Of a stretch of 64,000 bases of DNA, positions 14,174 through 58,723 are shown piece after piece. The stretch is from an uncultured Acidobacteriaceae bacterium (GTDB taxonomy: Bacteria; Acidobacteriota; Terriglobia; Terriglobales; Acidobacteriaceae). The DNA is taken from contig CAWEPW010000043.1 in assembly GCA_963810955.1 (NCBI GenBank), forward strand, positions 37,034 through 101,033. The letters run 5' to 3'. Below the pieces are notes generated by a model. That model did no database searches. It was not told the origin of the DNA and was given only the letters and a program-made list of their open reading frames with translations. Position numbers and translations under genes: made by a program. Numbering within the stretch: position 1 is the stretch's first letter; every line of letters begins with the position of its first letter.

Positions 14174-15363
14174 CTAGCCAGCCGGAGGACGCGTTCCCAG
14201 CTGATCAAGTTCTATCCGTGACGGAATGGCGCGCCCATGTCGCAGCGCCTGGTAGACCCACGCAAACAATGCTGAATTGATCATGCAAAAATAGTAAGGG
14301 AGCCGCAGAACTTTGGGCTTGAGGCTAGCCATAGCGCCCAGTACAGCGAGCCCATAGAAGAGCACTTGCCCGAGCAACAACCAGTCGTAAGGGAATTGTC
14401 CGCGCAAAGCGATATTCGCTCCAAGCGCGATGAGCATAAAGATGGGCACCAGCAGCCGCCCGGTTTTGTGAGAGAGCAAACAGAAGAGGACAAACGGCCG
14501 CGGCGGCCAGATCAGCCCTTTGATCTCCCGCAATTGTTCGATGTTGCCGGCCGTGATTCGCACGCGGCGGGAGAATCCCTCCATTTCATGAGCCTCTTCA
14601 TAGGCCACGGCTGCCGGTTCGTAGGCCACGCGATGTCCCTGTTCAACAATGCGCATCGGAATCGTGAAGTCGTCGTTGATGGTGTTGAGCGGCGGAAATG
14701 GATAAAGCGCGCGACGAATGGCATAAAGAGATCCGTGCGCGCCAGTAAATGCGCCGAGCTTGGCCTCTTGCACTTTCAGGAAAGTTTCATATTTCCAGTA
14801 GAGATCTTCTTGCGACCCAAGGTGGGCCTGATCTTTCTTCAGGAGCCGGTAAACTCCGCTGGCCGCGCCCACCCGCGCATCGTTGAAACTCTGCACCAGC
14901 ACGCGGAGAGAGTCGGCGGCCAACATGCTGGAAGCGTCGGAGAACGCTACGATGTCTCCGCGCAATTCGGGCACGGCATCGTTAAGAACCGCCATCTTTC
15001 CGCGATTCTTCTCATAATTGAGCAGGCGAATTCGTCCGTCGCTTCCGGTGTCGCTTCGTTTTCGCTTTTATAAAATGACCGCACAATTTCAGCCGTGGCA
15101 TCCTTCGACCCATCCGATGCGACCACGATTTCCAGCTTGTCGGCCGGGTAGTCAAGCGCAAGACTGTTGCGGATTTTGTCCGCGATAACAGCGGCTTCGT
15201 TGTAGGCGGCCACCAGCAGCGAAACGGACGGCTCAATCGGCTCCCGGCGCGGCGCGGCGCGAACCACACCCTGCAGCAGCCACAGCAGAATCGGATAACC
15301 GGCGTAGACGTAGACCGTAACCCCCGCCGAAATCCAGAACAGAAGCCTGGTCGTCATTAGCAA
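14174..15363 (-). CDS. Membrane-embedded family 2 glycosyltransferase (synthase-like, with TM segments at both ends). Split into two frames by an indel near 15040-15075
   Basis: N-terminal part (14947-15363): TM helix then LLVAAYNEAAVIADKI...LEIVVASDGSKDATAEIV. C-terminal part (14174-14995): NYEKNRGKMAVLNDAV..DIVAFSDASS..QEDLYWKYE..TGAHGSLYAIRR followed by several TM helices. Confidence 0.65.
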
Positions 15364-26458: not shown

Positions 26459-27338
26459 TCAGCCGATGCGTGCCGGGCGCGGCTTGGGAACGTAGGCTTG
26501 TTTTGGCGGAGTCACCTGCAGCAGCGACCTGCTCCCGACGTGCATGAAGCTCAACTCGCGCGCCGAAAGCAAGGCATGGATGGACTCTTTAACGCGGGTG
26601 CGAGGAACGAAGTTTGCGAGAAATGTTTCGGCCTCTGCTTCATCGACAGCCACCATGCAGCCGAGATATTTCGAGGCCAGCGCCGAGAGTGCTTGCGGTA
26701 CAGAAAGGCCAACGCCTTCGCGAACGACCTCCGGCGCCCAGCGCGACAACTCGTCCCACACCGAACCTTCTTCAACTGTGTAATCGACGCGTGTGATGCG
26801 GAGCTTGCTCCACAATTCACTGAGAGCGCGATCGAGGCCAGCGTCAGAAAGGGAGCCACCGAGCAATTCTCCCAACTTCGATTTAGAAATCGGGCCGCGG
26901 CGGCGGATGATCTCGAAGGCGTCGCAGGCTAGCTGTGAATAAGGAGAGCGTGGTCCCGCTCGCGGGCGGTTGCTTCGGGTTACGCTCGCCAACTAGAGAA
27001 TAAAAATAAGGGAATACGGAAGGCGCGAGCAGGAAGGCGTTGTTCTCTTCGAAAAGCGGGGCCTCGTAAGCCGCCCGATCGCGGAGGGCGCGCACCATCA
27101 ATTCAGTCGCTTCTTTGGCTCGCGGATCGTTATAGGCGTGCTGGCGGGTGGGCAGGTTGTCGTCAGCTCCGACCCAAGCGCCGATGAAAGTCGGCACCAG
27201 CACCGCTGGACGCATCGGATACATCAGGCAGAATCCGACTTCCTCCAGAAACGCACGTGCGTCGTCGAGAGTTCGCATGGGCTGGCCGTCGACGCGCCAC
27301 TTTTGGGCTCGGGCCTGTTGGAGTTCTAGGTCAGTCAT
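26459..27338 (-). CDS. Hypothetical protein in two overlapping frames (26883-27338 and 26459-26992); possibly a winged-helix domain protein interrupted by an indel
   Basis: Two adjacent same-strand ORFs overlap by ~110 nt with no recognisable gene boundary. Function not established. Confidence 0.3.
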
Positions 27339-27480
27339 TGACTTCAGATTAGAACACAGGCCAGCTCGCAGCTCTCAACCTAAGATCTCAGAGGGATATC
27401 CCGCGCCGACGGTCAGTCGCTTTTCCGCGTTCCTAAGACACGCAGCTTGCCGATCCCATTCTAGCGCCTAGGGTGACAGA

Positions 27481-29585
27481 CTAGATTCTTTTGAATGCCT
27501 TCTGAATATCCTGCATGGAGTAGCGCAGCACGACTGGCCTGCCATGTGGGCAGGTCATGGGATGGTCGGTCTTGGACAGTTCGGAGAGCAGCCATTCCAT
27601 TTTGTTTTGTTCCAGTGGCATGTTGACCTTGATAGCGGCGTGGCAGGCTATGGAGGCGGCAATTCGAGTGCGCACGGCTTCGAGATTGATGGCTTGCTCT
27701 TCGCGAGTCAACTGTTCGAGGATTTCGTTGAGCAGGTGCTCGATTTGCGCGGCGTCTACGCCGGCAGGGGCGAGTTTGACCGCAACGCTGCGGGCTCCGA
27801 AGGGTTCGGCCTCAAAACCGTTGTGGGACAGTTCTTCGGCAATTTGCTGAAGAATAGCTTGCTGCGCAGGCGTCAGTTCGATGATGAGCGGCATCAGCAG
27901 GCGTTGGCTTTCCACCTGCTGGCCTGCGCGCTGGCGCACGATGCGTTCGAAGAGCACGCGCTCGTGAGCGACGTGCTGATCGATGATCCAGAGGCCATCT
28001 TCGTTGACGGCCAAAATAAACGAGTTTCGAATCTGGCCTAACGGTCGCAGCGTGCGACAGCGATTCGAGGGTCGGCGAGTTTGCGGTTCCTGCGCGATGG
28101 GCGGAGCACAGCCATGATCGGGAACCGGTTCTGGATTCATCGTCAGTGGCGCAACTGCGCTTCTGGCACTCCCGCAAGCGACAGGGCGGCGTTTCCTCGA
28201 CTGCGATTCCGGCGGCAAACTCAAAACGCGCCGTGACTGCGGGAATAGCCGGCGCTTGCAGTCGCGAATCCCCGGCCGCCGCCGGTTCATACAAGTCGCG
28301 CCATGGGCTGCGACGGTGCAGTGCATCGGTCTGCTGCCGCCATCGGCGAAGCGGGAGTTACCTGTGCCGGGGCTGCTAAGCCCGGGAGTCGCCGAAGGCT
28401 GCGCTTTGATTTCCTTCAGGAATTGCGGCACCGGCCGCGCTTTCATCAACGCCGCCCGCACCGACTCGCGCACGAAATCATGAATCACCGTCTGCTGGCG
28501 GAACCGCACTTCAGTCTTTGAAGGATGCACATTCACATCCACCTCGGCGGTGGGCATTTCGATAAAAAGCAGAACGACTGGAAAGACCGTCGGCGGCAGA
28601 ATATTGCGATAGGCCTCGACGATGGCATGTTGCATAAGCCGATCGCGAATCAGCCGTCCATTGACGAAAATGAAAATCGAATTGCGATTGAGCTTCTGAA
28701 TTTCCGGCTTGGAAACAAAACCGTGCAGCCGCAATTCACCGAAATCTGGGGCGCCGACACTGTCCGCGAGTCCGCTGCTGTCTCATCTGGAGGTGCTGCT
28801 TCCCCTGCCTTAGAGGGGGCTTCGCGGACAAGAGTGTTCGCGCCACCCGTTTCGCTGCGCCGCCACGGCGGGGGCTGCGGAAGCCCAACCCGCTCCAGCG
28901 GCTGCACCGCCGCCAGCGGAATCAACTGGTCGAGCGTCTCGCCTCCGAATACCTGGTAGACACGTTCGCGATGGCCGGCCACGGGCGGCGCCACCAGCAA
29001 TGCATTCGTGGCCGAGTGCAACTCAAAATGCTTTTCAGGATGCGCCAGCGCGTAGTGCGTTACAAGCGATGCGATATGCGATAGTTCAGTCGACTCCGAA
29101 CGCAGAAATTTTTTGCGCGCCGGCGTATTAAAGAAGAGATCGCGAATCGTGATCGCAGTTCCCAGTGGCAGGCCTGCCTCTTCGACGCGGATGATTTTGC
29201 CGCCGTTGATCTCGAGAACCGTTCCCGCCGCTTCTTCGTCGGCACGCGTTTCCAGATGCAGGCGCGCAACCGAAGCAATGGACGGCAGCGCCTCGCCGCG
29301 AAAACCCAGGGTCGCAATGCTCAGCAGGTCGTCGGTATCTTTGATCTTGGAAGTCGCGTGGCGCTCAAATGCGAGCATGGCATCGTCGCGCACCATGCCG
29401 CAGCCGTTGTCGGTGATCTGGATCAGCTTCTTCCCTCCCGCCTCAACCTGTATGCGAATGCGCGTGGAACCAGCGTCCAGCGCGTTCTCGAGCAACTCCT
29501 TCACCACCGACGCGGGACGTTCGACCACTTCGCCGGCGGCGATCTGGTTGGCGACTCTTTCGGGAAGAACGTGAATTTTGCCCAT
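27481..29585 (-). CDS. mutL: DNA mismatch repair protein MutL, split into an N-terminal ATPase ORF (28650-29585) and a middle-plus-C-terminal ORF (27481-28734) that overlap in different frames
   Basis: N-terminus: HVLPERVANQIAAGEVVERPASVVKELLENALDAGSTRIRI..ITDNGCGM (GHKL ATPase). C-terminal ORF: LHGFVSKPEIQKLNRNSIFIFVNGRLIRDR...TDHPMTCPHGRPV. The junction region (28740-28900) is unusually long and frame-shifted. Confidence 0.8.
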
Positions 29586-30594: not shown

Positions 30595-30781
30595 GTCGCG
30601 GAAGTTATCAATCGTGCCGCGAGGGACTGCCTACCATCATCGCTTCTCGGCTGGAGGTGATGATAAGCTTTCTGTTCGGACTTTCACGTGCGAGGCGAGC
30701 TTAGCATTTTCGAAGAGCGAAATTCCGCGCTTGCCGCCAGGACGACAGATGGAGCCCGACCACGATCCCGATCCCAGTACA

Positions 30782-31878
30782 ATGACCACGCCCGAGCCGG
30801 CATATGGAGTGCCCGCCCTTGCCCAGGCGGTAGCTTCGCCGCTTACACGCGCCGCTATCTTTCTGGTCGCCACGCTCAAACCGGGCTCTGACAATCGCGC
30901 AACCTTGCGCTCGTTCTGCGGCGACCTCGCCGCGCTGTTGCGCGCGGTGGAATTTCGCGACCTGGAGGGACAACTTTCCTGCGTCATGGGATTTGGGTCC
31001 GACGCATGGGACCGCCTCTTCGGGACGCCGCGGCCGGCAGAACTGCACCCGTTCCGGGAGATTCGCGCCGGAGCGCGCCATGCGGTCTCCACCCCGGGCG
31101 ACTTGCTGTTTCACATCCGCGCCAAGCGCATGGATCTTTGCTTCGAGCTGGCCACGTCAGTTTATGGCTCGCATCGGAAATGCTGTTTCGCCGGTGGACG
31201 AAGTGCAGGGCTTCCGTTACTTTGACGATCGCGATCTCATGGGTTTCGTCGACGGTACGGAGAATCCCGAGAGGAGCAGCTGTAAACGACGCCGTCCTCA
31301 TCGGCGCCGAGGATGCTGGCTTTGCCGGCGGCAGCTACGTGCATCGTGCAGAAATATCTTCACAACCTTGACGCATGGAATGCGCTCTCCACCGAAGCGC
31401 AGGAACGCGTCATTGGCCGCACCAAGCTTTCCGACATCGAATTGGACGACTCCGTCAAGCCAACGTCGGCGCACAGCGCGCTCACTACCATCGTCGAGAA
31501 CGGGAAAGAGATCAAGATTCTGCGCGACAATATGCCTTTCGGCCGGCCCTCGCAGGGTGAATTTGGCACCTATTTTATCGGCTACAGCCGTTCGCCCCGC
31601 ACCATCGAGCAGATGCTCGAGAACATGTTCGTCGGCCGGCCGCCCGGCAACTACGACCGGATACTCGATTTCAGCCGCGCTGTCACCGGAAGTCTGTTCT
31701 TCGTGCCATCCGCGACATTTCTGGAAAACGTGACTGAAGATCCGGCTGTGGTTGTGGATTCCTCCGCTGCACCAGTGGCGGCCGAACCGCAGTTCATCTG
31801 CACCGTCTTCATCCACATCGGCGTGCCGAGGGTTCGCTCGGCATCGGTTCCCTCAAAGGAGACATACGACATGAATAA
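30782..31878 (+). CDS. Dyp-type peroxidase (encapsulin cargo) with a C-terminal targeting peptide. The reading frame changes about four times (near 31162, 31245, 31345 and 31835)
   Basis: AIFLVATLKPG, GDLLFHIRAKRMDLCFELA (frame 2). ARIGNAVSPVDEVQGFRYFDDRDLMGFVDGTENP (frame 0). RGAAVNDAVLIGAEDAGFAGGSYV (frame 1). IVQKYLHNLDAWN...GRPSQGEFGTYFIGYSRSP...TGSLFFVPS (frame 2). EGSLGIGSLKGDIRHE-stop (frame 1), where the stop overlaps the encapsulin start. Confidence 0.7.
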
Positions 31879-32689
31879 TCTGCATCGCGAGCTTGCTCCC
31901 ATTTCCGATTCGGCGTGGGCTCAGATCGAAGAGGAGACAACGCGCACGCTCAAGCGCTACCTCGCCGGTCGGCGCGTTGTCGACGTGAAGGGGCCGGCGG
32001 GCACGGGCCTTTCTGCCGTCGGCACCGGCCACCTGCGGACGATCACCGCCCCGGCGAAGGGCATCGTCGCGAGGCAGCGCGAGGTGAAGGCGCTGGTCGA
32101 GCTGCGTGTTCCATTCGAACTGGATCGCCAGGCGATCGACGACGTCGATCGTGGCGCGAACGACTCAGACTGGCAACCGGCGAAGGACGCCGCGCGACAG
32201 ATCGCCTTTGCCGAGGATGCCGCGATATTCGAGGGTTATGCCGCCGCCGGCATTGAGGGCATCCGTCAGGGGACCAGCAATCCGATCATGACGCTGCCGG
32301 CCGACGTGCGCGAATACCCGGAAGCCATTGCGCAAGGCTTGAGCCAGTTGCGTCTCGTCGGCGTCAACGGCCCCTATTCCGTGCTGCTTGGCGCCGACGC
32401 CTACACCGCACTCGCCGAGACCAGCGACCACGGATACCCGGTGCTGGAGCACGTCAAGCGGCTGGTCAAAGATGAAATCATCTGGGCGCCCGCCATTGCC
32501 GGCGCTTTCGTGCTGACCACTCGTGGCGGCGATTTCGACCTGCACATCGGCCAGGACGTCTCCATCGGCTATCTCAGCCACACCGATACCGCCGTCCGCT
32601 TGTATCTGCAGGAGACGTTTACCTTCCTCCTGCTCACCAGCGAGGCTGCCGTCGCGCTGGCTTCTCCCGCAAAGGCAAGAAAAACCTGA
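31871..32689 (+). CDS. Family 1 encapsulin shell protein (linocin M18 / CFP29-like)
   Basis: MNNLHRELAPISDSAWAQIEEE..GRRVVDV..LVELRVPF..IDDVDRGANDSDW..FEGY..GIEGI..GPYSVLLGADAYT..SDHGYPV..IIWAPAI.GAFVLTTRGGDFDL..VRLYLQETFTF, colinear with M. tuberculosis Enc Rv0798c. 272 aa, intact. Confidence 0.85.
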   Translation: MNNLHRELAPISDSAWAQIEEETTRTLKRYLAGRRVVDVKGPAGTGLSAVGTGHLRTITAPAKGIVARQREVKALVELRVPFELDRQAIDDVDRGANDSDWQPAKDAARQIAFAEDAAIFEGYAAAGIEGIRQGTSNPIMTLPADVREYPEAIAQGLSQLRLVGVNGPYSVLLGADAYTALAETSDHGYPVLEHVKRLVKDEIIWAPAIAGAFVLTTRGGDFDLHIGQDVSIGYLSHTDTAVRLYLQETFTFLLLTSEAAVALASPAKARKT

Positions 32690-35250: not shown

Positions 35251-38200
35251 CTATTCCGCAGGGTCGTAGTTCAGGTTTTGCCCGAGCCATCGCTCGATCT
35301 CGGCCACGCTCATCCCCTTGCGTTTGCTATAGTCGGCGACTTGATCGCGGTCGATCTTGCCGAGACTGAAATATCGCGACTCCGGATGCGCGAAGTAAAG
35401 CCCGCTCACGCTCGAACCAGGCCACATCGCAAACGATTCCGTGATCAGCATCCCTGTATTGGCCCGCACATCGAGCAATCGCCAAAGGGTGCCCTTCTCC
35501 GTGTGATCCGGGCAAGCCGGATAGCCCGCAGCCGGCCGTATGCCCCTATATTTCTCGTGGATGAGATCCGCGTTGCTCAGACCTTCGCCACAACCGTAAC
35601 CCCATTGTTCCCGCACCCGCTTGTGCAGGCACTCGGCGAAAGCTTCAGCCAGGCGATCGGCAATCGCCTCGGCCATGATCGCGTTATAGTCGTCGTTCTT
35701 CGCGCGGAACCCGTCGCACAGTTCCTTCAATCCGATTCCGCTCGTTACGGCGAATGCACCGACGTGATCGGACAACCCCGTTTCCTTGGGCGCGATGAAG
35801 TCAGCAAGCGATCGGCACGGCTCGCTGCCCTCTTTATTGGATTGCTGACGAAGGAAGTGGAAACGCTCGAGCGTCTTTTCGTGTTTGTTATCCGTGTAGA
35901 GTTCGACATCGTCGCCCACGGCATTGGCTGGAAACAAGCCGTAAACGCCCCGCGCCGTGATCAGGTTTTTCCCCACGATCTGATCCAGCAGCGCATTGGC
36001 TTCGGCAAAGATCTGCCGGGCCTGTGCGCCTTGTCCTTCGTGCTCAAGAATGCGGGGATAAACTCCCTTCAGCCCCCAGGTGTGAAAAAACGGCGTCCAG
36101 TCAATGAAGTCGCGGAGCGTCGCCAGCGGAAAGTTGTCGAGCACCCGCACACCGGTAAATGACGGTGTAGGCAGGTCTTCGGCACGCCACTCAATGGGAG
36201 TTCGTCTCTTTCGCGCGGCCTCAAGCGAGATGACGCTTATCTTCTGCGCGGAATGGGACTTGCGAAGCGCATCGTAATCCGCGCGATGTTGCGCCACGAA
36301 TGCCGGCTTGCCCTCGTCGCTCAGAAGGCTGGTCGTCACCGGCACCGCCCGGCTGGCATCCAGGATGTGCACCACCGGCTCGCTATAGTGAGGCGCGATC
36401 TTGACGGCGGTGTGCGCCCGGCTCGTGGTTGCCCCGCCGATAAGCAGCGGCAATTTGAAGCCCTGCCGCTCCATCTCGCGGGCAACGTGCACCATCTCGT
36501 CGAGAGAGGGCGTGATCAGGCCGCTGAGTCCGATGAGATCCGCCTTTTCCGCCTTGGCGCGTTCCAGGATTTTTTCGCACGGGACCATCACTCCCATATC
36601 GATCACTTCATAGTTATTGCAAGCAAGGACCACGCCGACTATATTCTTGCCGATGTCGTGAACGTCGCCCTTGACGGTAGCGAGAAGGATTTTTCCCTGC
36701 GCCTTGACCACCTGGCCAGAGGCAGCCATCGCGACTTTCTCGGCCTCCATGAACGGCGTCAGGTGCGCCACCGCCTTCTTCATCACGCGGGCCGACTTGA
36801 CCACTTGAGGCAAGAACATCTTTCCCGCGCCGAACAGATCGCCGACCACACCCATGCCGGCCATCAAGCGGGCCCTCGATCACCAACAGAGGGCGGCCGA
36901 GCTTCAAGCGGGCTTCTTCGGTATCGAGTTCAATATAGGCGTCGATTCCCTTCACCAGCGCGTGGGAAAGACGCTCCTCGACCGTGCCGTTGCGCCATTC
37001 TTCGGCCTTTTTCTCACTTACTGCCTTGCCGACGCCTTTTAGCTTTTCGCCATAGTCCACCAGCCGCTCGGTCGCATCTGGACGGCGATTCAGCAGCACA
37101 TCCTCGACCAGAACCTTCAGCTCAGGCTCAATTTCTTCATAGACCTCGAGCATTCCGGCATTGACGATACCCATGTCCATGCCCGCGGTGATGGCGTGAT
37201 AAAGAAACGCGGAGTGCATGGCCTCACGCACCTTGTTATTGCCCCGGAAGCTGAAGGAGATATTCGAGACGCCGCCGCTGACTTTTGCGTGCGGCAGATT
37301 GGCCTTGATCCAACGCGTGGCGTTGATGAAATCAACCGCGTAGTTGTTGTGCTCCTCCATGCCGGTGGCAACGGTGAGGATGTTCGGATCGAAGATGATG
37401 TCTTCGGGGGGAAAGTCAACTTCGTCAACCAATATCCTGTAGGCGCGCTCGCAGACGCGGATCTTGTCGTCGAAAGTCGCGGCCTGGCCCTGCTCGTCGA
37501 AGGCCATCACCACCACAGCCGCGCCATACTTCATGACCGTGGCGGCGTTGTGGCGAAACTTCTCTTCGCCTTCTTTCAGCGAGATTGAATTGACAATACC
37601 CTTGCCCTGTAGACACTTCAGCCCCGCCTCGATAACCTCCCATTTCGAGGAGTCGATCATGAAAGGCACCTTGGCGACTTCGGGTTCGCTGGCCAGCAGT
37701 TGCAGGAAGCGCGTCATGGCGATGACGCCATCGATCATGCCCTCGTCCATACAAATATCGAGGACATTCGCTCCATTCTCAACCTGCTGACGGGCAACGC
37801 TTACCGCTTCTTCGTATTTACCCGCCTTGATGAGTTGCGCGAATTTGGGCGAACCTGCCACATTGGTTCGTTCGCCGATCACGATATAAACCCCAGGTTG
37901 TTGCGTGAACGGCTGCGATCCTGAGAGACGAAGCGGCTTGATCTCCCCCGCCTCGGGCACACTTATGATATCGGCCACACTCACTCTCTGCTCTCGCTTT
38001 GAATTGCGTAGGACCCCTCAACGAGCGTCGTGCCCCATCTTCGCGGGGGCTGGCCTTCGAGCGCCTTGGCGATAGCCGCGATGTGCTCGGGCGTATTGCC
38101 GCAGCAACCGCCAGCGATGTTGATCAGCCCTCCTCGCGCGAAGTCGCCGAGATAACGAGCCATATCCTGCGGCCTGAGATCGAAGCCGGTTTCCGACAGC

Positions 38201-39111
38201 GGATTCGGCAACCCTGCATTCGGGTAACACGAGATCGCCACGTCCGCCTTTTCCGAGAGATCTTCGAGAAATGGATACATCAGATCGGGACCGAGAGAGC
38301 AGTTGAGTCCGACTGATAACGGTTTCACGTGCCGCACCGCGTTCCAGAACGCCTCGGTCGTCTGCGCCGAGATCATCGTCTCGCCGCCACGTCCCACCGC
38401 CGCCGAGATCATCACTGGCAGTTCTTTGACATCATGGTCGAACACCTCACGGATTGCGACAAGTGCGGCTTTGGCGTTCAGCGAGTCGAAGATCGTCTCG
38501 ACTAAAAGCAAATCCACGCCGCCAGCGATAAGACCTCTTACCTGCTGCGCGTAGGCTGTCTTCACCTGATCGAAAGTGACCACTCGAAAGCCTGGATCGT
38601 CGGCATCGGGCGAGTTCGACAGAGAAACGGTCAGCGGCCCAATCGCTCCCGCCACGAATCGCTCACGCGAGGTTGCGGTTCCGATGCGGTCGGCCCATTC
38701 ACGGCACTGCCGCGCCGATTGCTCATTGATATCCCAAGTCAGGCCGTTAAGAAACGGATCGTCGACGACCTTTTGGTAGAACGCGGGGTCTTTGCGGCCG
38801 CCGCGTTCCCGCGGATCTTCGACAAAGAATTCGCTCTGGGTGATACTGGTTGCTCCGAACGTATTGGTCTCGATAATGTCCGCTCCCGCCTCCAGAAACC
38901 GGCGATGGATGTCACCGATCATTTCCGGCTTAGTAAGCGAGAAAAGATCACCGTTGTTCAGAAGGCTCTTCGTCGCGTCCTTGAATCGTTCTCCCCGGAT
39001 GTCCGCTTCTGTCATGCCGTAGCTGCGGATGGTCGTGCCCATCGCTCCATCGATGATGACAATGCGATCTTCGAGGATCTTCTCAAGAGTATGTTGGCGG
39101 GCTTTTATCAT
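35251..39111 (-). CDS. metH: Cobalamin-dependent methionine synthase MetH, present as three consecutive ORFs in different frames: Hcy-binding 37981-39111, pterin-binding 36614-37984, B12-binding plus AdoMet-activation 35251-36867
   Basis: All four MetH modules are present and colinear. At the junction near 36865, EGPL / [32 protein letters not shown] is separated by one extra g (cttgatg). The junction near 37985 changes frame by 2. Confidence 0.85.
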
Positions 39112-39466
39112 ATCTTTTCGATGATGTTAGGCAGCCTTAGATTCGGCCTTAACTGGGCGACATTTCCGCGAAGTACGCCTTATTTATTATAGCGATTGGC
39201 AGGATGCCCAAGCCCTGAGGCGTGTGGTCACTGAAGTAATGGTGGCACAGCGACGGATTACTATGCGCGACGATTTCAGGATTATTTTCATCAGCTTATG
39301 GCCTAAGCTCTAGTTCCCCTGCGGAGCATATAGCCGCCAACCCAGCGAGCTATGTGGATGCTCTATGACTGGTTCATCCCAGTCGCTGGTCACAATCGAA
39401 CCATCGGATGGCAGATTGCGTCCGCTATACTGCTTTCTCCCCATCTCTCTCTTCTGGAGTAGCTGA

Positions 39467-44512: not shown

Positions 44513-47449
44513 ATGCGTTTTTCGGTATTGTCTTTATTGCTCTTCGGCGCGCTTAGTGGGGCCGCCCAAGTTTTCTCTACGGCTGCGCAAGCGCTCTATG
44601 ACGGGCAACAGGTAACCGCTGTCGACCTTATTGCCAATCCCCATCGCAACGTGGAACCTCTACGAGATTACATTACGCAACATGCCGGAGAACCATATTC
44701 CGAAGCGAAGGTGGAGGCCAGCATCAACGCGCTGCAAAAAAACGGAGGTTTCCAAAAAGTCACGGCCGATGTTGTTCCGGACATCTCCGGCGTGCGGCTG
44801 AATTTTATTCTTGAGCCTGCCTATTACCTGGGAGTGATCGAATTTCAGGGAGTCGCAAAGTCGTTTTCTTATTCACGCCTGCTTCTAACGGTAAATTTGC
44901 AAGACGAAGATCCTTATGACCAAGCGCGCATCCCGATGGCGAAGGCAGCGTTATTGCACTTTCTCCAACACGATGGATATTTTCTGGCAACGGTGGCGGT
45001 TGAGCCGCATATCGACGATACCAATCAAATAGTAAATATTACCTTCACGGTGGCCATGGGAAAGCAGGCCCGCATTGGGCGCGTCGCGGTTGAAGGTCCG
45101 GCGGAGCCGGCACAGGCCTCGTTGGTTCATAGCACGCGTTCGCTGCGCGCGAGGTTCACAGGCGCACTGCTCAAGCCGGGAAAGCCTTACACCCCGGCAC
45201 GGATAAAAGCTGCAATCAAGGCGATGAAGAGGTCACTCAGGCAACAGCATCGACTGGCCAGCACGGTCACCGAACTACCTCCCCAATATCATACGGAGAC
45301 GAATCGGGTGGACGTCTCGTTCAAGATTGAAACGGGGCCCGTGGTGATCATTCGCACTACAGGCGCGCGTCTTTCTTCGATCCCTTTCATGTCAAGCCGG
45401 GAAATGAAGAGACTCATCCCCATTTACTCCGAGGGCGCGATCGATTCCGACCTGGTCCAGGAGGGACAGAACAATCTCGTGGACTACTTTCAGAAGAAGG
45501 GCTTCTTCGACGTCAAGGTAACCACAGATTTCGAGAAGCAAGCTGATCAACTTTCGCTCGTATATAAAATCGATCGCGGCAAAAAGCACAAGGTGGGACG
45601 GATTGCCTTCCGCGGCAATAATCAGATAGCCGCAAAGGCCTTGTTACCCCAGGTCGCAATCCACAAATCTCACATCTGGTCACATGGCAACATTAGTCAG
45701 AAGCTGATTAAACAGAGTGTCGATAACCTCGAAGGCTTCTATCGCGATAAGGGTTTTGAGGATGTGAAGGTTACCCCACTGGTCGCGGAACATGATCCGC
45801 AAATCGACGTCACGTTTGAAATCACTGAGGGACAGCAGACACTCATCGACAGCATACGTGTAACCGGAAACCGCAGCGTGCCGCAAAATCAACTGGCCGC
45901 TCCAAAAGGCTTTAAATTAAAGGTTGGCGCGCCATTTTCCGCGCGGCGAGTGACCGACGATCGTAATCGTATCTCGGCAACCTATTTGGAGCGCGGATAT
46001 CTCAATGCCGAAGTTAAAGCGAGCGTGAGCCGCCATTCCGGCGACCAACACCGCGTGGACGTGACTTACACCATCGAAGAGCATCAATTGGTAAGTATGA
46101 AAAACGTTATCTACCTGGGCCAAGAACACACGCGGCTGTTGTTGATCAAGAAAACCGCGAACCTGCGGCCCGAGGCTCCGATGGAAAGAGGCCAGATGCT
46201 CGCGGCGGAGAGCCGACTTTATGACTTGAATGTGTTCGATTGGTCGAGCGTTGGACCGCGGAAGCCAATCACCGATCAGATGGACGAAGACGCCATCGTC
46301 AAAGTGCACGAAGCTCAGCGCAACGAGATTACATACGGGTTCGGATTTGAGGTGTCGCATCGTGGAGGCAACATACCCAGCGGAACCGTCGCCGTGCCGG
46401 GTCTGCCGGTCGTTGGCTTGGGGAGCAATCAGATTGCACCGAGCCAGGCTCTCTATGCCAGCCCTCTGGGGTCGATCGATTTCACGCGGCGAAATATGAG
46501 GGGGCTGGCGGAGACCGCGAGCGCTTCGATTCTGTTGTCGCGGCTCGACCAGCGCGTGCTCGCCACTTATTTGCAGCCGCACTTTCTTGGGTCGGGATGG
46601 AGTTCGCTGACCAGCTTCTCTGTTGAGCGCACTACCGAGAATCCGCTGTTTGCGGCAGGCCTGGGCGATGTGTCATTCCAACTCGAGAAACTCATCAGCC
46701 GGAAGGATCATACGAGGCTGCAGCTCCGCTACGATTTCAATAAGACCGACTTGTCGCACCTGCTGGTGCCTGAACTGGTGCTGCCGCAGGATCGCAACAT
46801 TCACCTCTCCACGTTTTCGGGGACACTCATTCGCGACAGCAGGGACAAACCCTTGGACGCGCATCGCGGTGTTTTCGCGACTCTCGACTTGAGGATTACG
46901 CCGATTAGTCTTGGCTCCAGCGCAAATTTTGCCAAGGTCTTCGGACAATATTCTTTCTATAAGCCGATTCATTCGCTGGTTTTCGCCAACAGCGTACGGC
47001 TGGGATTGGCGAAGGCATTCAATGGAAGTTTTGTGCCCACCAGCCAACTTTACTTCTCCGGGGGTGGAACGACTCTGCGCGGCTTTCCAATTAATGAAGC
47101 CGGGCCGCAACGTCTGGTGCCGTTCTGCAACGTCCTCAAGGGTCAGACGGGATGCGTCAACGTCACCCTGCCGGTCGGCGGGAGGCAGTTGTTCATCTTG
47201 AACTCGGAGATGCGTTTTCCGCTTCGGGTCATGAAGGATCTGGGAGGAGTCGTATTTTACGACGGGGGAAACGTTGACAGCGCCATCAGCTTCCACGACT
47301 TTACGAACAACTATACGAACACCGTCGGGATTGGCTTGCGGTATGCAACGCCGATCGGGCCCATTCGCATCGATTTGGGGCGCAACTTAAACCCTGTGCC
47401 CGGGATCAATCCGACACAGTACTTCATCACGTTAGGTCAGGCGTTTTGA
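44513..47449 (+). CDS. Omp85 (BamA/TamA) family outer-membrane protein with POTRA repeats and a C-terminal beta-barrel
   Basis: Signal peptide MRFSVLSLLLFGALSGAAQ. Repeated POTRA-like units, then a C-terminal barrel ending ..YFITLGQAF. Intact, ~980 aa. Confidence 0.75.
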   Translation: MRFSVLSLLLFGALSGAAQVFSTAAQALYDGQQVTAVDLIANPHRNVEPLRDYITQHAGEPYSEAKVEASINALQKNGGFQKVTADVVPDISGVRLNFILEPAYYLGVIEFQGVAKSFSYSRLLLTVNLQDEDPYDQARIPMAKAALLHFLQHDGYFLATVAVEPHIDDTNQIVNITFTVAMGKQARIGRVAVEGPAEPAQASLVHSTRSLRARFTGALLKPGKPYTPARIKAAIKAMKRSLRQQHRLASTVTELPPQYHTETNRVDVSFKIETGPVVIIRTTGARLSSIPFMSSREMKRLIPIYSEGAIDSDLVQEGQNNLVDYFQKKGFFDVKVTTDFEKQADQLSLVYKIDRGKKHKVGRIAFRGNNQIAAKALLPQVAIHKSHIWSHGNISQKLIKQSVDNLEGFYRDKGFEDVKVTPLVAEHDPQIDVTFEITEGQQTLIDSIRVTGNRSVPQNQLAAPKGFKLKVGAPFSARRVTDDRNRISATYLERGYLNAEVKASVSRHSGDQHRVDVTYTIEEHQLVSMKNVIYLGQEHTRLLLIKKTANLRPEAPMERGQMLAAESRLYDLNVFDWSSVGPRKPITDQMDEDAIVKVHEAQRNEITYGFGFEVSHRGGNIPSGTVAVPGLPVVGLGSNQIAPSQALYASPLGSIDFTRRNMRGLAETASASILLSRLDQRVLATYLQPHFLGSGWSSLTSFSVERTTENPLFAAGLGDVSFQLEKLISRKDHTRLQLRYDFNKTDLSHLLVPELVLPQDRNIHLSTFSGTLIRDSRDKPLDAHRGVFATLDLRITPISLGSSANFAKVFGQYSFYKPIHSLVFANSVRLGLAKAFNGSFVPTSQLYFSGGGTTLRGFPINEAGPQRLVPFCNVLKGQTGCVNVTLPVGGRQLFILNSEMRFPLRVMKDLGGVVFYDGGNVDSAISFHDFTNNYTNTVGIGLRYATPIGPIRIDLGRNLNPVPGINPTQYFITLGQAF

Positions 47450-50400
47450 TGATGTCATGGCGTAGATTCGCGGGCTGGACGTTGACGGCGCTCGGCGTGT
47501 TGCTGCTGGTTGGGGCGCTGGGCGGATACCTGTTTCTCGAGAGCAACAGTTTCCGGAGAACGGCAATACGCACAATCGTCAAGGACGCGAATGAGGCCAC
47601 TGGCGGCAGAACTGAGATTGGCGGTCTTGACATTCAGCTATCGACGCTGACTGCGCGCCTTTACAACATCACGCTGCATGGCACGGAGTCGCCTGCGCAA
47701 CCGCCCTTGCTGAGGATCGACAAACTTACCGTTGGCATAAGAATTGAGTCACTGCTGCGCCGGAAGGTCAGTTTCGGTGAGCTTGAAATCGAACACCCGG
47801 TTGCCCATGTGTTCGTCGACCTGCAGGGACACAGCAACATTCCATCACCACCACCAACGGCGAGCAATTCGACTGGCAGGCAAACGAATGTTTTCGATCT
47901 GGCCGCCCGGCATGTGCTGCTGACTGGCGGAGAAATCACCTACAACGACACGACGACTCCTTTGGAGGCCGAGCTTTACGGTCTGCGAACCGAGATAGGC
48001 TTCGATCCGCTCGCCACGCGTTACCACGGATCCATTTCATACAGCAGCGGACTGCTGCGCTATGCGAATGACGCTCCTTTCCAACACAGTCTGGACGCCA
48101 ATTTTGATGCGACTCCCTCGCGCTTTACGCTTGATTCGGCAAAGTTGAACGTCGGGTCATCCGCGATATCCCTGCACGCCGAACTCGCCGACTACAGCAA
48201 TCCTACGATTGAAGGCGAATACGATATTCGCATTCACACGCAGGACTTCGCGGCGATGGCGCAACCCATCATCCCTGCGGGCGATCTCTCGCTGGCCGGC
48301 ACTCTTCATTATCACAGGGTAAGCGATCAGCCGCTGTTGCAGAACATTGCGTCTAATGGACAAGTCGAGAGCGCCAGGCTCGTCATCCGGTCAAGCGACG
48401 GGCAGGTCGACGTGCGTAAGCTGCAGGGCAAATATCAGCTTTTGAACGGGGTGTTACAGCTGCACGACATGGCCTTTAATGCGCTCGACGGACGCGTAGT
48501 CTCCGACGTCGGGATTCAGAATCTTGATAAACTTCCCATCGCACATTTGCGAACCACAATGACCGGAATTTCTTTGCGGAGTGTGCAGCACGCTGTGCGC
48601 AAATTGGGCGTCCCCCCCTTGGAGTTACTCGGCAAAGTCGATGGGACTGTCGAAGCTTCATGGACAGATAACATCAGCAATATCCGAGCACATACCGATC
48701 TGCGTGTCCTGGCTCCCGCGAGCAGCGAGCTCTCCTCAAAGGCAATTCCGCTGAGTGGAGCCATTCACGCGTCTTACGACGGATCTCGGAATATCATCGG
48801 CCTTTCTCAAACTACGCTCCATATTCCTTCGCTAACTATCGATGCTCAGGGGCAGCTCGGTAGCCGTTCGAATTCGAATCTGCAGATTCGCGGAAACGCC
48901 AGCGATCTGCATCAACTGTCGGAATTGCTGGGAGCGCTTCGCGGAGGGCACGCTCCGACCGAGATTACCGGTGCGGCTTCCTTTCAAGCCGTGGTACGAG
49001 GCTCGATGCAAAAGCCCACTCTGACGGGGCAGGTGGAAGCCCATAACCTCCAGGTCGAAGGCAGCGAGTGGAGCAGCGCCAGTTTCAAGGTCCAGGCAAG
49101 TTCTTCGGAAATCGTGTTGCAAGAGGCTGGTCTGGTCAGCGCTCATCAGGGCAACGCGTCGCTAAGCGCTCATGTTGGATTGACTAACTGGTCTTATCTG
49201 CCTTCGAGTCCAATCTCGGGAAGCCTGGCCGTGCAACGCCTGTCTATCGCCGACTTACAACATCTGGCTAACTTGCACTATCCCGTTTCCGGCGACTTAT
49301 CGGCTAAGATTTTCTTCCACGGTTCTCAACTCCAACCGGCCGGGAATGGAACGGCGACAATCGACAATGCTCGCGCATATGGCGAAGCGGTTCACCATTT
49401 CGCAGCGACTTTCCGAACGAATCAGGATTCATTGGTCTCGACGTTGGAGGTCATCATGCCCGCAGGCTCGGCCAGGGGCACAATCTCCTATACTCCAAAG
49501 ACAAAGGCGTACAGAGTGCGGCTTGATGCTCCGTCAGTTGCTTTGCAGAAATTGCAAATAGTTGAGGAGAAGAATCTTGGAATCGCAGGGACGCTGCAGG
49601 CAGCCGCCAGCGGTGAGGGAACGTTAGACAATCCGCAGTTAACGGCGACCGTTGCAATACCTCGATTGCAGCTGCGCGATAAATCGATCTCGCAATTAAA
49701 GGGAGAACTGCACATCACGAATGAGCGCGCGGAGTGGACGCTTGATTCAAATGTAGCTCAAGCTTCGGTTCGTTCCCGCGGCACGGTCAATCTAGCTGGA
49801 GATTATTACGCCGAAGCGACGATCGATACTGGCGATGTGTCCCTCAATCCCCTGCTGGCGATGTATGTACCCAATTTGCCGCCGGGCTTTCAGGGCGAAA
49901 CGGAACTGCATGCCACTCTAAAAGGCCCGTTGAAGGATAAATTGAGAATCGAGGCCCACGTCACGATTCCTATGCTGAAGGCGAGTTACCAATCCCTGGA
50001 AATCGGCGCCACCAGCCCGATTCGAGTGGACTACGATCATTCCGTCATCATGCTGCAGCCGGCCGAAATTCACGGCACCGCGACGTCTCTTCGATTGCAA
50101 GGGAATATTCCGCTCAATGGAAGTTCGGTCACCCACGCTCAGCGCTCAGGGCTCGGTGGATTTACGAATCATTCGCATACTGGAGCCTGATGTGCAGAGC
50201 TCGGGCACTCTTTTGCTTGACCTTCATGCCTCGGGGAGCGCCACGAACCCTGCAGTTCAAGGGCAAGTTCATCTTCGAGACGTTGCTTTGTCCACTCCTT
50301 CCGCTCCACTCGGGGTGCAGAACCTTAGCGGCGATCTAGACATCAGCAACAGCACCATACAGGTATCCAAACTCGCGGGAGAAGTCGGAGGCGGCCAGAT

Positions 50401-51374
50401 GTCTTTGGGCGGTTCAATTTCTTACCGGCCTAAACTCCAGTTCAACCTAACCATGCAGAGCGAATCGGTTCGATTGCTCTATCCCAATGGAATCAGGACG
50501 GTGCTGGATGGGAACCTGGCTCTGAACGGGACGAAGGACGCATCGACACTAAATGGCCGCGTGCTCATCGACAGTCTTTCGTTTACACCCGATTTTGATC
50601 TGGCAAAGTTCAGCTCTCAATTCGGTGAAAGCAGCCTGCCCGCCCAGCCGCGGCTTGCCGATAACATTAGACTTGCTATCAGTTTGCAGTCCAAGGGAGA
50701 TCTTAGCGCGAACAGTTCCCAAGTCAGCTTGGCAGGGCAAGTGAACCTGCAGGTGACCGGCACGGCGGCAAACCCCGTAATTATTGGTCGAACCGATCTG
50801 ACATCCGGAGAGGTTTTTTACCGTAATGTCAGGTACCAGTTGGAGCGCGGAATCATTACCTTCGACAATCCCAACGAGACAGAGCCGGTGTTGAACATCG
50901 CCGCCACCACGACCATTGAACAATACAATTTGACCATTGCGGTGCGAGGAACGTTCGACAAGTTATTGACCACTTACACCTCTGATCCGCCGCTGGCTAC
51001 CGCAGACGTCATCAACCTTATTGCCCAGGGACATACCACCCAGGACCAGAATGCCGGCCAGTCAAAGTACGGATTCGATAATTGCTTCTCAGGTTACAAG
51101 CCAGGTTACCAGCAGCATTCAGCAACTGGCGGGTATTTCCAGTTTGCAAATTGACCCGCTGTTGGGCGGAAACAATCAGAATCCCTCCGCGCGGGTTGCG
51201 CTTCAGCAGCGCGTGTCCAAGAATTTCTTGTTTACGTTTTCGACTGATCTCTCGCAACCCGGCACCGAAGTCGTGGAAGGCGACTACCAACTGAACAAAC
51301 ACTGGTCGGTCAGCGTTACGCGAAATGAAGTAGGAGGAATCTCGGTCGACGGAAGGTATCGCAAGAAGTTTTGA
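47449..51374 (+). CDS. tamB: TamB-like translocation and assembly module protein (DUF490 C-terminus), present as three ORFs in different frames (47446-50190, 50117-51154, 51021-51374)
   Basis: N-terminal membrane anchor MMSWRRFAGWTLTALGVLLLVGALGGYLF. Long repetitive beta-rich body. C-terminus ..LFTFSTDLSQPGTEVVEGDYQLNKHWSVSV. The start overlaps the Omp85 stop. Confidence 0.7.
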
Positions 51375-55717: not shown

Positions 55718-58418
55718 CTATTGGCGCCAGCAGCCAGGTTTCGGCGATTGCAGGCAGCATTTCGATGGCTGACCGGCTGCCTGTGTTGTCTTGGCGTCAG
55801 TGGACCGGGTGCGGTCGGAATCACTTGTGAAGGCCTCGAAGCGAAGTACCTCGGAGCCTTCTTCCACTAATACGCGGTGGTTGACCGGCAGATCGCGGAG
55901 TTCCTGCACCGCTCCGCTCGGCCAGCGGATCGAGGCGTGCACCGGGCCAACCGCTGCACCCAAGCCAAAGTAGAGGTCTTTGCTGTGCTGCGAAAGGAAT
56001 CCCGATCCGGCTTGCAGCGATCTGACCTGTAACGATTGAGTTTGGCGCCCCACCTGAGTTTCCAGTATGACCACCGCGCCGATCGCGTCGCGATTGCTTT
56101 TTGTGCCGCGCAGGCGGAAGGCGATGGATGGAGGCAGATTCTCCATCGCATTTTTTAAGAGCCTCAGCTGCGGCGCATTGCGGTTCTTGAGAAATATTTC
56201 TTGACGGCCGTCGTGATCGAAATCCGCGAGCGCAAAGGCGCGACCATCTTCTGGGAAGTCGAGGCCTATGACGCCCGAGACATCGGAAAACGTTCCATCT
56301 CCGTTGTTCGCGTAGAAAACATTTCGCTCGTAGCCACTCCACGTGCCATCGGCGCGGATCAATTCGTTGATCGCACTCCAGCCTTGTTCGTATTGCTGCG
56401 ACGGCTTCGCGTCATTGGGAGAATTGGCGACGACCTGCCGCCAGAAAAAACTGTTCAGGTCTTCAGCAGAGCGCGAGGGCCCGCTGACAAAGCCGTTGGT
56501 GATGTAGAGATCGGGAAATCCGTCATGGTCGAAATCCCAGGCATCGCTCGACCAGGCCCAGCGGCCGACGCCGACTCCGGCGGATTGCGTCGTGTCTTCA
56601 AAAGAACGCGCTTCCCTCTCGGAGCCCCTTGCGGGAAATATTTTTGAACAGCGAATTGCCCATGGCGTGTTTGTGATAGAGTGCGCGCGTTTCCGGAGGC
56701 GCATTTTTCTGGAAGATATCTTGCGTCGAAATCCGCTCGCCAGCCGCTGTCCACATGTTGGCGACGTAGAGGTCTTCCGAGCCGTCGTTGTTATTGTCAT
56801 AGTCGAAGCAGCAGACGCTCATGCCCGCGCCGATGTCTTCAACCCCCGCTTGCCGGGCGATATCGGTGAAGGTTCCGTCGCCATTGTTGCGGTAGAGATT
56901 TTTCCGTCCGAAATCGTTGACCACGTAGAGATCGGGCCAGCCGTCGCCGTTGAAATCGTTCCAGGCGCAGCAAAAGCTATAGCGCGTGTTGTTTTGGTTG
57001 AGGCCGGTCTCGGCGGTTACGTCGCGAAACGTGCCATCGCGCTGGTTCCGCATCATGAAATTCGGCGGACCATTTTCGGCCGCATAATAAGGAGACGGAT
57101 ACTTGTACTGATCCGCGCCCTGGTAATAGACGTAGAGGCAGAAATAAATATCTAGCCATCCGTCGCGGTCATAATCGGCAACCGCAGCGCCTGTGAAAGT
57201 CCCTTGCGGCGGAGTGGCAAACTGAAACGCATTAGCTTTCTGCCGGAACTTGCCGCCCCCTTCGTTCAGGAATAGCATCGGACCGCTGGCGCGCACGACG
57301 ATCAAATCCTGCCGTCCATCGTTATCGATGTCCACAAAAAGAGCGCATGCTGTATTTTCGATAACGCCAACGCCCGACGCTTCCGTAATGTCCTCGAAAG
57401 TGCCGTCGCCGCGATTGCGATAAAGGCGGTTGGGAAGTCCACCCGGCTGGCAGACGTATAGATCGTCAAATCCATCGCCATCGATGTCGCCAACTGAAAC
57501 GCCATTATGCCCATAGATATCGATGCCGCAAGCGCCATCGAGCACGGTGCGCCAGTAGTCGGTGCCGTGCATAAGCTGCGCGGCATAAGACGCATTGCCG
57601 CCGAGCGCCGCGGCCGTGATGTCGATATAGGCGGGCGCGGAACCCATGTAGCGGCTCTGAGTTTCGTCCAGTGTCTCCCAGCGGCGAACGCGAACCTCAC
57701 CCGATGCCGACCGTTGCCACGCGATCTGCCAATGCCCGAGGCTCTGCTGGCGATAGAAACCATTGCCGGTGGCAACCCACTCATAGCGTATGCGCGTCTG
57801 CAACTCGGCGGGAGATGCCTCCTCCGCTGATATCGAATGAGCGCCGGTCGAGCCAGCACCGGTCTCGGCGTCAATGCTCGTCACCTGAAATTCAGCGGTA
57901 AGAATTTTCGAAAAGCTGCTCAGTGCCCGACGCAGCTCCTCTAAAAACTTGTCGCGCCCGAGTTCAGTCGCATCCTGGAACGATTGGCGGCGAACCTCGA
58001 TGGCCGCGCTTTGGCGTATCAACCTCGAATCGATCACACGCAGAGAAGCTCCCGAGAAATTCGGCAGAAGAACATTCTCAATGGCACTTATATCTTGCGG
58101 AGAATGCAGCAGTCCTGAACTCCATTGCGCAAGAATCGCTGCAATCTCGTCGGCGTATTTTTCCGTAACAAAATCGTCGAGGCCCGCTTGCGTCTTGAGC
58201 AGCAGGGCATCGAGAGGCCCGGGCATCTTATAGTGAGGATGCAGATGGAATTCCGTTGCCGACGCAGATGCTTCGGCGGGGTCAACAGCATTGAGAAAAG
58301 GCCAGCCGCGACCACCGACGCCTGCAGGTATCAGCATCACTGAGGCGCTTTGGCAGAACTGAATCAGGAAGTCGCGTCGACTATATTCCACGGAGCCGGG
58401 AGCGGCCAGTGATCGCAT
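55718..58418 (-). CDS. CRTAC1-family protein (FG-GAP/VCBS repeats plus ASPIC/UnbV C-terminal domain), split across two frames near 56600-56800
   Basis: Repeated DxDGDGxxDLYV motifs (DIDGDGFDDLYV, DFNGDGWPDLYVVN, DFDHDGFPDLYITN). C-terminal UnbV-like block GSGFLSQHSKDLYFGLG. Confidence 0.6.
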
Positions 58419-58723
58419 CTTAGCTGCTCTATTCAGAACGATGTCTCCCGGATGCCCACTGGTGGCCTGAAATTAACACCCTCACAAAAGCGCGTCAAGA
58501 TTTGGAGTCGCGCAATTTGCGAAGTGCTTAACCACCAAGACCACGAGGTTGCACGAAAAAAACAAACACACCCCCATTGACCGCCTGCAAACATAACTCT
58601 GAACCTTTCAATAATTGCGCTGCCGACGCTGGCCAGGCGTTACAATGGCCCACTCTTGTTCTGGAGCAAAACGGTTTGGTTAAGCCAGGAAAAGTCCGGC
58701 CAGCGAAAAAAATCTCGCCCGCC

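Follow-up and report, generated by a model that had tools for sequence, protein, structure and literature searches.

A mutL Gene Split by Single-Base Indels, Most Likely Errors of the Record, in a 64-kb Stretch of an Acidobacteriaceae Contig

Introduction

MutL proteins of the endonuclease type are composed of a GHKL ATPase plus transducer region, a flexible linker and a C-terminal domain (CTD), in which the endonuclease is defined by the motifs DQHA(X)2E(X)4E plus ACR and C(P/N)HGRP. The model proteins are ~615-630 residues long and their interdomain linker is commonly regarded as unconserved. Here we have analyzed a mutL gene that is written in two overlapping open reading frames (ORFs) in a 64,000-nucleotide (nt) stretch of DNA from an uncultured Acidobacteriaceae bacterium of the Terriglobales (GenBank assembly GCA_963810955.1, contig CAWEPW010000043.1, positions 37,034-101,033), hereafter called the window, to which all coordinates refer. 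The original prediction for this gene, made from the DNA letters and their translations, left two possibilities: the split was either one more sequencing error, or the cause of the other frameshifts in the window through a defect of mismatch repair (MMR). Judging from the sequence and its relatives, the split in mutL most likely reflects insertion/deletion (indel) errors of sequencing or assembly and is probably not a real feature of the organism.

Two kinds of described cases provide the terms of comparison. On the one side, indels that fragment genes are documented in long-read assemblies (PMC12007338). On the other side, a natural mismatch-repair-null Pseudomonas accumulates mutations of a characteristic kind, with transitions constituting 97.5% of the substitutions and indels 6.8% of all mutations (PMC4316635).

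The mutL Locus as Written

The mutL locus contains the following elements.

27481-29585, minus strand: complete mutL gene, encoding an endonuclease-type MutL of 702 amino acids (aa) once six indels are corrected
28650-29585, minus strand: ORF1, 311 aa, with MutL residues 1-281 authentic and then ~30 out-of-frame residues
27481-28734, minus strand: ORF2, 417 aa from the earliest possible start (TTG at 28734), containing the latter half of the transducer, the linker (largely out of frame) and the C-terminal endonuclease/dimerization domain

The two ORFs lie in different frames of the minus strand and overlap by 85 nt, and both are present exactly where the original prediction had them. Its allocation of the GHKL ATPase to the first and of the dimerization C-terminus to the second also agrees with the Pfam domain assignment, for ORF1 matches HATPase_c_3 and HATPase_c, which correspond to the GHKL ATPase part, while ORF2 matches positions 23-118 of the DNA_mis_repair profile followed by the complete MutL_C profile (positions 1-140, 6e-39). 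The transducer begins in ORF1 and its remainder is found in ORF2, the two parts being contiguous only with one base restored at 28746/28747, within the stretch (28700-28900) that had been proposed for checking. Although this separating frame change is real in the sequence, mutL contains six frame changes in all rather than the single one implied by a split into two pieces.

In tblastn comparisons with the homologous protein P0001, 281 aa of ORF1 show 96% identity in one frame, and the similarity collapses over the linker when the frame of ORF2 is read. The single-polypeptide form that is found in relatives (~600-730 aa) is not recovered from the sequence as written and is recovered from the corrected sequence; its lack is a property of the record and constitutes no argument against homology with MutL.

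Six Single-Base Lesions in mutL

The nearest DNA to that of the window is in the JGI contig L001, which shows 87% identity, and scans of genome and metagenome contigs found no intact mutL from the same species. DNA alignment with L001 gave six single-base indels in mutL. A frameshift-aware alignment of protein to DNA was then considered for four independent Terriglobales relatives, L001, L002, L088 and L083, all of which place the identical six frame changes in the gene. The lesions were positioned at the codon level by comparison with eight relatives, which are also the source for the exact base that appears to be missing at each of them.

Lesion 1, 28746-28751 (~28747), minus strand: a CA[N] codon at a His/Gln/Tyr position, preceded by CCC (Pro) and followed by GAT (Asp), lacks one base
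Lesion 2, 28314-28353 (best ~28338), minus strand: one base missing (GGC GG- CAG CAG) at the variable start of the linker
Lesion 3, 28195-28198 (~28198), minus strand: one base missing in the conserved Glu codon of IAVE(A/G)NAA
Lesion 4, 28154-28160 (~28159), minus strand: one base missing (GAA GC- GCA)
Lesion 5, 28077-28080 (~28078), minus strand: one base missing directly upstream of the stretch coding for the invariant PTLESL
Lesion 6, 28056-28058 (~28057), minus strand: extra T after CTG (Leu) and before CGC (Arg) in the stretch coding for the invariant PTLESLRTLRP

Lesion 1 is the frame change that divides ORF1 from ORF2; it is placed at 28748-28751 with the four guides, and the window has GCG CCC CA- GAT TTC where the relatives have CCA CAC GAT TTC. 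At lesion 3 the window reads GTC GA- GGA AAC versus GTC GAG/GAA GCA AAC in the relatives, and lesion 4, together with lesions 2 and 3, brings the reading back to the frame of ORF2. Lesion 6 (TCG CTG T CGC ACG in the window, TCG CTG CGC ACG in relatives) compensates lesion 5. The frame changes of lesions 2-4 therefore sum to -3 and those of lesions 5-6 to 0, so that the five linker lesions have a net effect of zero and introduce no stop codon; this is why they remain hidden and why the conserved domains of ORF2 stay in frame. The linker passes through three frames, with the result that ORF2, although it seems unbroken, misreads ~90 of the linker codons. All lesions but lesion 1, five out of six, are confined to a linker of 282 nt (p ~2e-4 for a pre-specified span).

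Indels that arise from MMR deficiency concentrate in homopolymeric runs, and the original prediction had placed the lesions of the window in mononucleotide runs as well. This is not borne out by the mapped sites: each of the six mutL lesions affects either a unique base or a run of two to three, and the same applies to five lesions in a gene for a Dyp-type peroxidase and to one in metH (both described below), for which no run exceeds three bases. The window contains 153 runs of at least five bases, none of which coincides with a mapped lesion. Homopolymer slippage, be it due to MMR deficiency or to sequencing, was consequently rejected for the mapped lesions, since long-run contexts are lacking.

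The Corrected MutL Protein

Three parts of the protein are best considered with the lesions restored.

28743-28925, minus strand: transducer loop insertion of ~55-60 aa, LERVGLPQPPPWRR...VSAP, absent from E. coli MutL
28048-28405, minus strand: interdomain linker of ~115 aa, with the motifs APWRDLYEP, EANAAxSLA and IPDHGCAPPIAQEP
27484-28047, minus strand: C-terminal dimerization/endonuclease domain, intact and in one frame, with DQHVAHERVLFE, ACHAAIK, CPHGRP and QRLLMPL

The corrected protein of 702 aa aligns end to end with those of eight relatives. Each homologue listed in our searches is one protein, 679-737 aa in length and in most cases 688-712, the best of them deriving from Terriglobales metagenome-assembled genomes (MAGs) and from peat or soil metagenomes, with P0001, encoded on L001, the closest. 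MutL is encoded in one frame by 135 of 141 complete relatives. The linker, which had been described as longer than usual, does not stand out in this comparison, because the homologues have the same size as the corrected protein; both the length of mutL and its linker are therefore normal for the clade, even if ~700 aa exceeds the size of the model proteins.

The likeness of the corrected protein to endonuclease-type MutL, as represented by the CTD of B. subtilis (3GAB/3KDK) and the LN40 of E. coli (1B63/1NHJ), extends over the whole architecture: GHKL ATPase and transducer, flexible linker, and a C-terminal domain with the metal-site motifs DQH(A/V)xxExxxxE, ACR-like and CPHGRP as well as a QxxLxP-type clamp. 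Residues 4-220 match residues 5-225 of E. coli LN40 (2e-78) and residues 276-380 match its residues 227-332, while residues 512-702 match the B. subtilis CTD (3GAB/3KDK). The motifs by which the GHKL fold is recognized (ExxxN, DxGxG, GFRGEAL and GT) are present in the sequence as ELLENALDAG, DNGCGM, GFRGEAL and LGTAI. DQHVAHERVLFE, ACHAAIK and CPHGRP are the endonuclease motifs, and QRLLMPL is a clamp-type motif.

Two properties distinguish the protein of the window from the model MutLs, namely the additional transducer loop of ~55 aa and the presence of linker motifs that are conserved within Terriglobales. The segment formed by residues 221-275 is a loop insertion typical of the clade, because it is flanked by matches to LN40 residues 225 and 227; each of the eight relatives has this loop, and lesion 1 lies at its C-terminal end. 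The linker motifs APWRDLYEP, EANAAxSLA and IPDHGCAPPIAQEP are spread over three frames in the window. The invariant PTLESLRTLRPLGQIRNSF at the beginning of the C-terminal domain is aligned in the corrected protein and the eight relatives alike, and such motifs are still encoded exactly, though out of frame, as in CCG ACC CTC GAA TCG CTG [T] CGC ACG. (Of note, the longer pattern ARxEFxGGIAVEANAAxSLA is also conserved in the MutL linker of Terriglobales, namely at loci L001-L003, L082-L085 and L088.)

No Sign of Decay in mutL

To judge whether the gene is decaying, we compared changes private to the window with those private to the intact L001. The count was restricted to the 604 alignment columns with agreement among six or more of the seven outgroups; there, 17 amino acid changes are private to the window, all of them conservative, versus 13 in L001. 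At the nucleotide level the branch leading to the window carries 79 changes and that of L001 carries 47; the difference resides mostly in third codon positions (54 vs. 28), so that the excess is synonymous, and the changes at codon positions 1 and 2 amount to 25 in the window and 19 in L001 (p = 0.45). Third positions account for 68% of the window-specific substitutions (chi-square p = 2e-10). The same bias is seen downstream of lesion 1, with 39 changes at position 3, 15 at position 1 and 9 at position 2, although a real and old lesion would have left this part of the gene untranslated. In the shifted segments of the linker, window-specific substitutions show no third-position bias (4, 7 and 7 per codon position). 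In-frame stop codons are absent from the corrected mutL, Dyp and metH genes and from the corrected gene of ~300 aa that lies beside mutL.

The substitution spectrum also differs from that of L001, with window-specific transitions and transversions in the ratio 47:32 versus 36:11, so that the window is less transition-rich, in a test of limited power given that any putative inactivation would be younger than most of the branch. From the indel share of 6.8% reported for a natural MMR-null Pseudomonas (PMC4316635), six neutral indels would be expected to be accompanied by ~83 substitutions. The excess observed at codon positions 1 and 2 is 6. The mutL of the window thus shows no decay, and the relative-rate and codon-position tests led us to reject the possibility that it is an old pseudogene.

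Frameshifts Elsewhere in the Window

The whole window was surveyed with Pfam scans of stop-to-stop ORFs and by comparison with relatives. A Viterbi frame track based on codon usage was used as a rough map only: some of its training segments are misframed, and it recovered known shifts but missed short compensated ones. This survey confirms that the window is rich in frameshifts, at least eight genes besides mutL being broken and the record containing at least ~25 single-base indels in 64 kb. The best mapped cases are listed here.

26465-27356, minus strand: conserved gene of ~300 aa without Pfam match, directly downstream of mutL, with an extra base at ~26957
31157, 31269, 31341, 31789 and 31828: five single-base insertions in the Dyp peroxidase gene
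35254-39126, minus strand: MetH (B12-dependent methionine synthase), in three ORFs, ~1275 aa in relatives

The ~300-aa gene has a syntenic counterpart beside mutL in L002-L006 and L033. The Dyp insertions throw the conserved stretch FVDGTENP out of frame, and three of them restore the frame despite an intervening stop codon; because this stop codon lies between the insertions, the restoration cannot have been selected. In MetH, an interdomain linker carries a net change of -1 (near 37970-38050) and the B12-binding_2 cap domain a +1 (at 36865); the pieces of the protein are each ~91% identical to P0121 with no gap. Elsewhere, an ATP-sulfurylase/APS-kinase fusion is split near 9400 (APS_kinase profile position 30/31), a GT2 glycosyltransferase is split near 15040 (profile position 51), and a methyltransferase is truncated. 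No lesion was found in HisRS, AspRS, Cmk and PanE when these proteins were compared with relatives; BamA has its complete domain set in a single frame by the Pfam scan and the frame track, a check that short compensated shifts could escape.

The lesions are clumped: the segment 26.9-31.8 kb contains ~12 of them, whereas 21.2-26.4 kb is free of lesions. Such clumps, and the runs of lesions of the same sign, may be related to local consensus quality or to a mixture of strains.

Further observations concern the same genes and clumps. Additional lesion clumps are seen at 12-16 kb, 50-51 kb and 55-57 kb, and a runs test on 15 signed lesions counts 4 runs where 8.2 are expected. Four of the five Dyp insertions consist of a G. 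The Dyp-type peroxidase gene (30740-32686, plus strand) adjoins a gene for a Linocin_M18 encapsulin, and its C-terminal part, as written, reads in frame into the encapsulin ORF; its tail SLGIGSLKGD may be an encapsulin-targeting peptide, making the two proteins a candidate cargo pair. Pfam matches and the frame track further suggest that a TamB/AsmA-like gene beside BamA (47278-51151, plus strand) and an FG-GAP/ASPIC repeat gene (55721-58472, minus strand) each occupy at least two frames.

Origin of the Lesions

Taken together, these results point to errors in the record, because the lesions are indels only, strike single genes several times and leave the coding signal preserved in the corrected frames, and also because they hit catalytic cores and are locally clumped. 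An ordinary, functional-type Terriglobales mutL would have been corrupted by six single-nucleotide errors at the stage of sequencing, consensus calling or assembly. One of these, the base missing at 28746/28747, would split the gene into two ORFs, while the remaining errors, four lost bases and an added one from 28338 to 28057, would shift the linker and cancel out. In the organism mutL most likely forms one ORF of ~702 codons, and the neighbouring genes would have been damaged in clumps by the same error process; a local loss of consensus quality would produce clumps like those seen. The damage to mutL is of the same kind as that of its neighbours, and for this reason the gene looks like a victim of the process that has acted on the whole window, and not like its source. 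Of the two possibilities initially raised, that of one more sequencing error is consequently sustained by the six indels, the lack of decay and the similar lesions elsewhere, whereas the mutation spectrum, the lesion contexts and the substitution load all speak against mutL as the cause of the others.

Comparable situations exist among relatives. A split mutL is present in six of the 141 complete mutL genes retrieved from related public assemblies, three of them nanopore MFD MAGs (L007, L013 and L028) and the others L056, L118 and L156, and in both L013 and L028 the gene is distributed over three frames. The window resembles error-prone long-read assemblies in having only single-base indels, many split genes per contig and fragments that are homologous to intact orthologues and give full-length proteins upon correction (PMC12007338). 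It differs from typical long-read errors in the mostly non-homopolymeric contexts of its lesions and in their same-sign clumps.

Several observations fit less easily with errors in the record. The non-homopolymer contexts are unlike the homopolymer errors that nanopore, 454 or Ion Torrent sequencing classically leaves in a consensus, and lesions of the same sign come in runs, mutL having five deletions and Dyp five insertions. The five linker lesions that leave the frame open could also have come from selection for restoration of the frame. The four genes of the window that are clearly essential, those for HisRS, AspRS, Cmk and BamA, carry no uncompensated frameshift, and the genes that are broken are all dispensable in principle; selection acting on real mutations would likewise spare essential genes. 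The last point is weak, for the avoidance of essential genes under random clumps has a probability of ~0.3, and this lack of power led us to discard it as a discriminator.

The alternative that fares best among the others, although we consider it unlikely, is that the frameshifted mutL is a real null allele in a natural MMR-deficient hypermutator, with some or all of the remaining frameshifts in the window as its consequence. The split is present in the sequence, and with ORF1 terminating within the LN40 fold the allele would be null. Natural mutators caused by frameshifting MMR lesions do exist and can revert, as exemplified by P. fluorescens ATCC948 with its 41-bp insertion in mutS (PMC4316635), and a real mutator would also agree with the integrity of the essential genes and the dispensable nature of the broken ones. 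What the window shares with ATCC948 is a frameshift in an MMR gene, which would abolish its function were the lesion genuine; the differences are more extensive, since that strain shows 97.5% transitions and ~7% indels (PMC4316635), as against a ratio of 47:32, no excess of substitutions and six indels within mutL itself. A real mutator is further contradicted by six indels in mutL without the ~83 substitutions expected (the excess at positions 1 and 2 being 6), by the third-position bias that continues downstream of lesion 1, by the lack of enrichment in transitions and by the location of the indels outside homopolymers. It is equally at odds with the absence of any nonsense mutation in the corrected genes and with the Dyp gene, where three insertions restore the frame across a stop codon, so that compensation there does not stem from selection.

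We would assign a similarly small chance to the broader proposition that the lesions are real, be it in a mutL-null hypermutator lineage or through a burst of clustered single-base indels in same-sign tracts of ~0.7-1 kb. In that event dispensable genes, i.e. mutL, Dyp, metH, the genes for sulfation and exopolysaccharide (EPS) and TamB, would be freshly pseudogenized while the essential genes remained intact, and the linker frame of mutL would have been regained by three successive -1 deletions.

Less probable is a mixed origin, in which the linker lesions are real compensated frameshifts tolerated by a disordered linker and the change at 28747 alone is either an error or a real inactivation. 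Its attraction lies in the five linker lesions summing to zero with the frame still open, in the concentration of five of the six lesions inside 282 nt and in the substitutions of the shifted segments, which lack third-position bias (4, 7, 7). Yet the linker of this clade does not evolve freely: APWRDLYEP, EANAAxSLA and, above all, PTLESLRTLRP show conservation or complete invariance among the eight relatives, and although the frame of the window destroys these motifs, they are still encoded out of frame; moreover, five independently fixed indels are implausible on a branch of only ~80 substitutions, and the same pattern recurs in Dyp, where compensation is useless. Finally, expression of the gene as written, be it by a programmed ribosomal frameshift at 28747, by slippage of transcription there or in the form of two separately functional polypeptides, has in its favour only the 85-nt overlap of the ORFs and was rejected as having next to no probability, since 135 of the 141 complete relatives are single-frame, GCG CCC CAG ATT contains no slippery heptamer, the break falls inside the LN40 fold, no Rfam element was found and five more frame changes would also have to be recoded.

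Other Features of the Window

The first part of the window (1-20300) resembles a locus for a sulfated polysaccharide, with four sulfotransferase genes, the ATP-sulfurylase/APS-kinase fusion mentioned above and a TauE exporter; it also contains a CysQ-like protein of the inositol monophosphatase family, GT2 glycosyltransferases, a polysaccharide deacetylase and a Polysacc_synt flippase. Scans of the whole 64-kb window for tRNAs and Rfam families gave no hit above threshold, so that no structural RNA could serve to gauge the errors independently.

Implications

If the lesions are errors, as seems most likely, then gene calls, pseudogene counts and any deduction of a mutator phenotype or of genome decay from this assembly would be wrong until the sequence is polished. 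The 417-aa ORF2 additionally illustrates how an ORF that looks intact can conceal compensated frameshifts. A real mutator strain is not supported, there being no good evidence for it; were the split real, the organism would be a natural MMR-null soil acidobacterium, and of interest for how mutation rates evolve among slow-growing bacteria of the soil.

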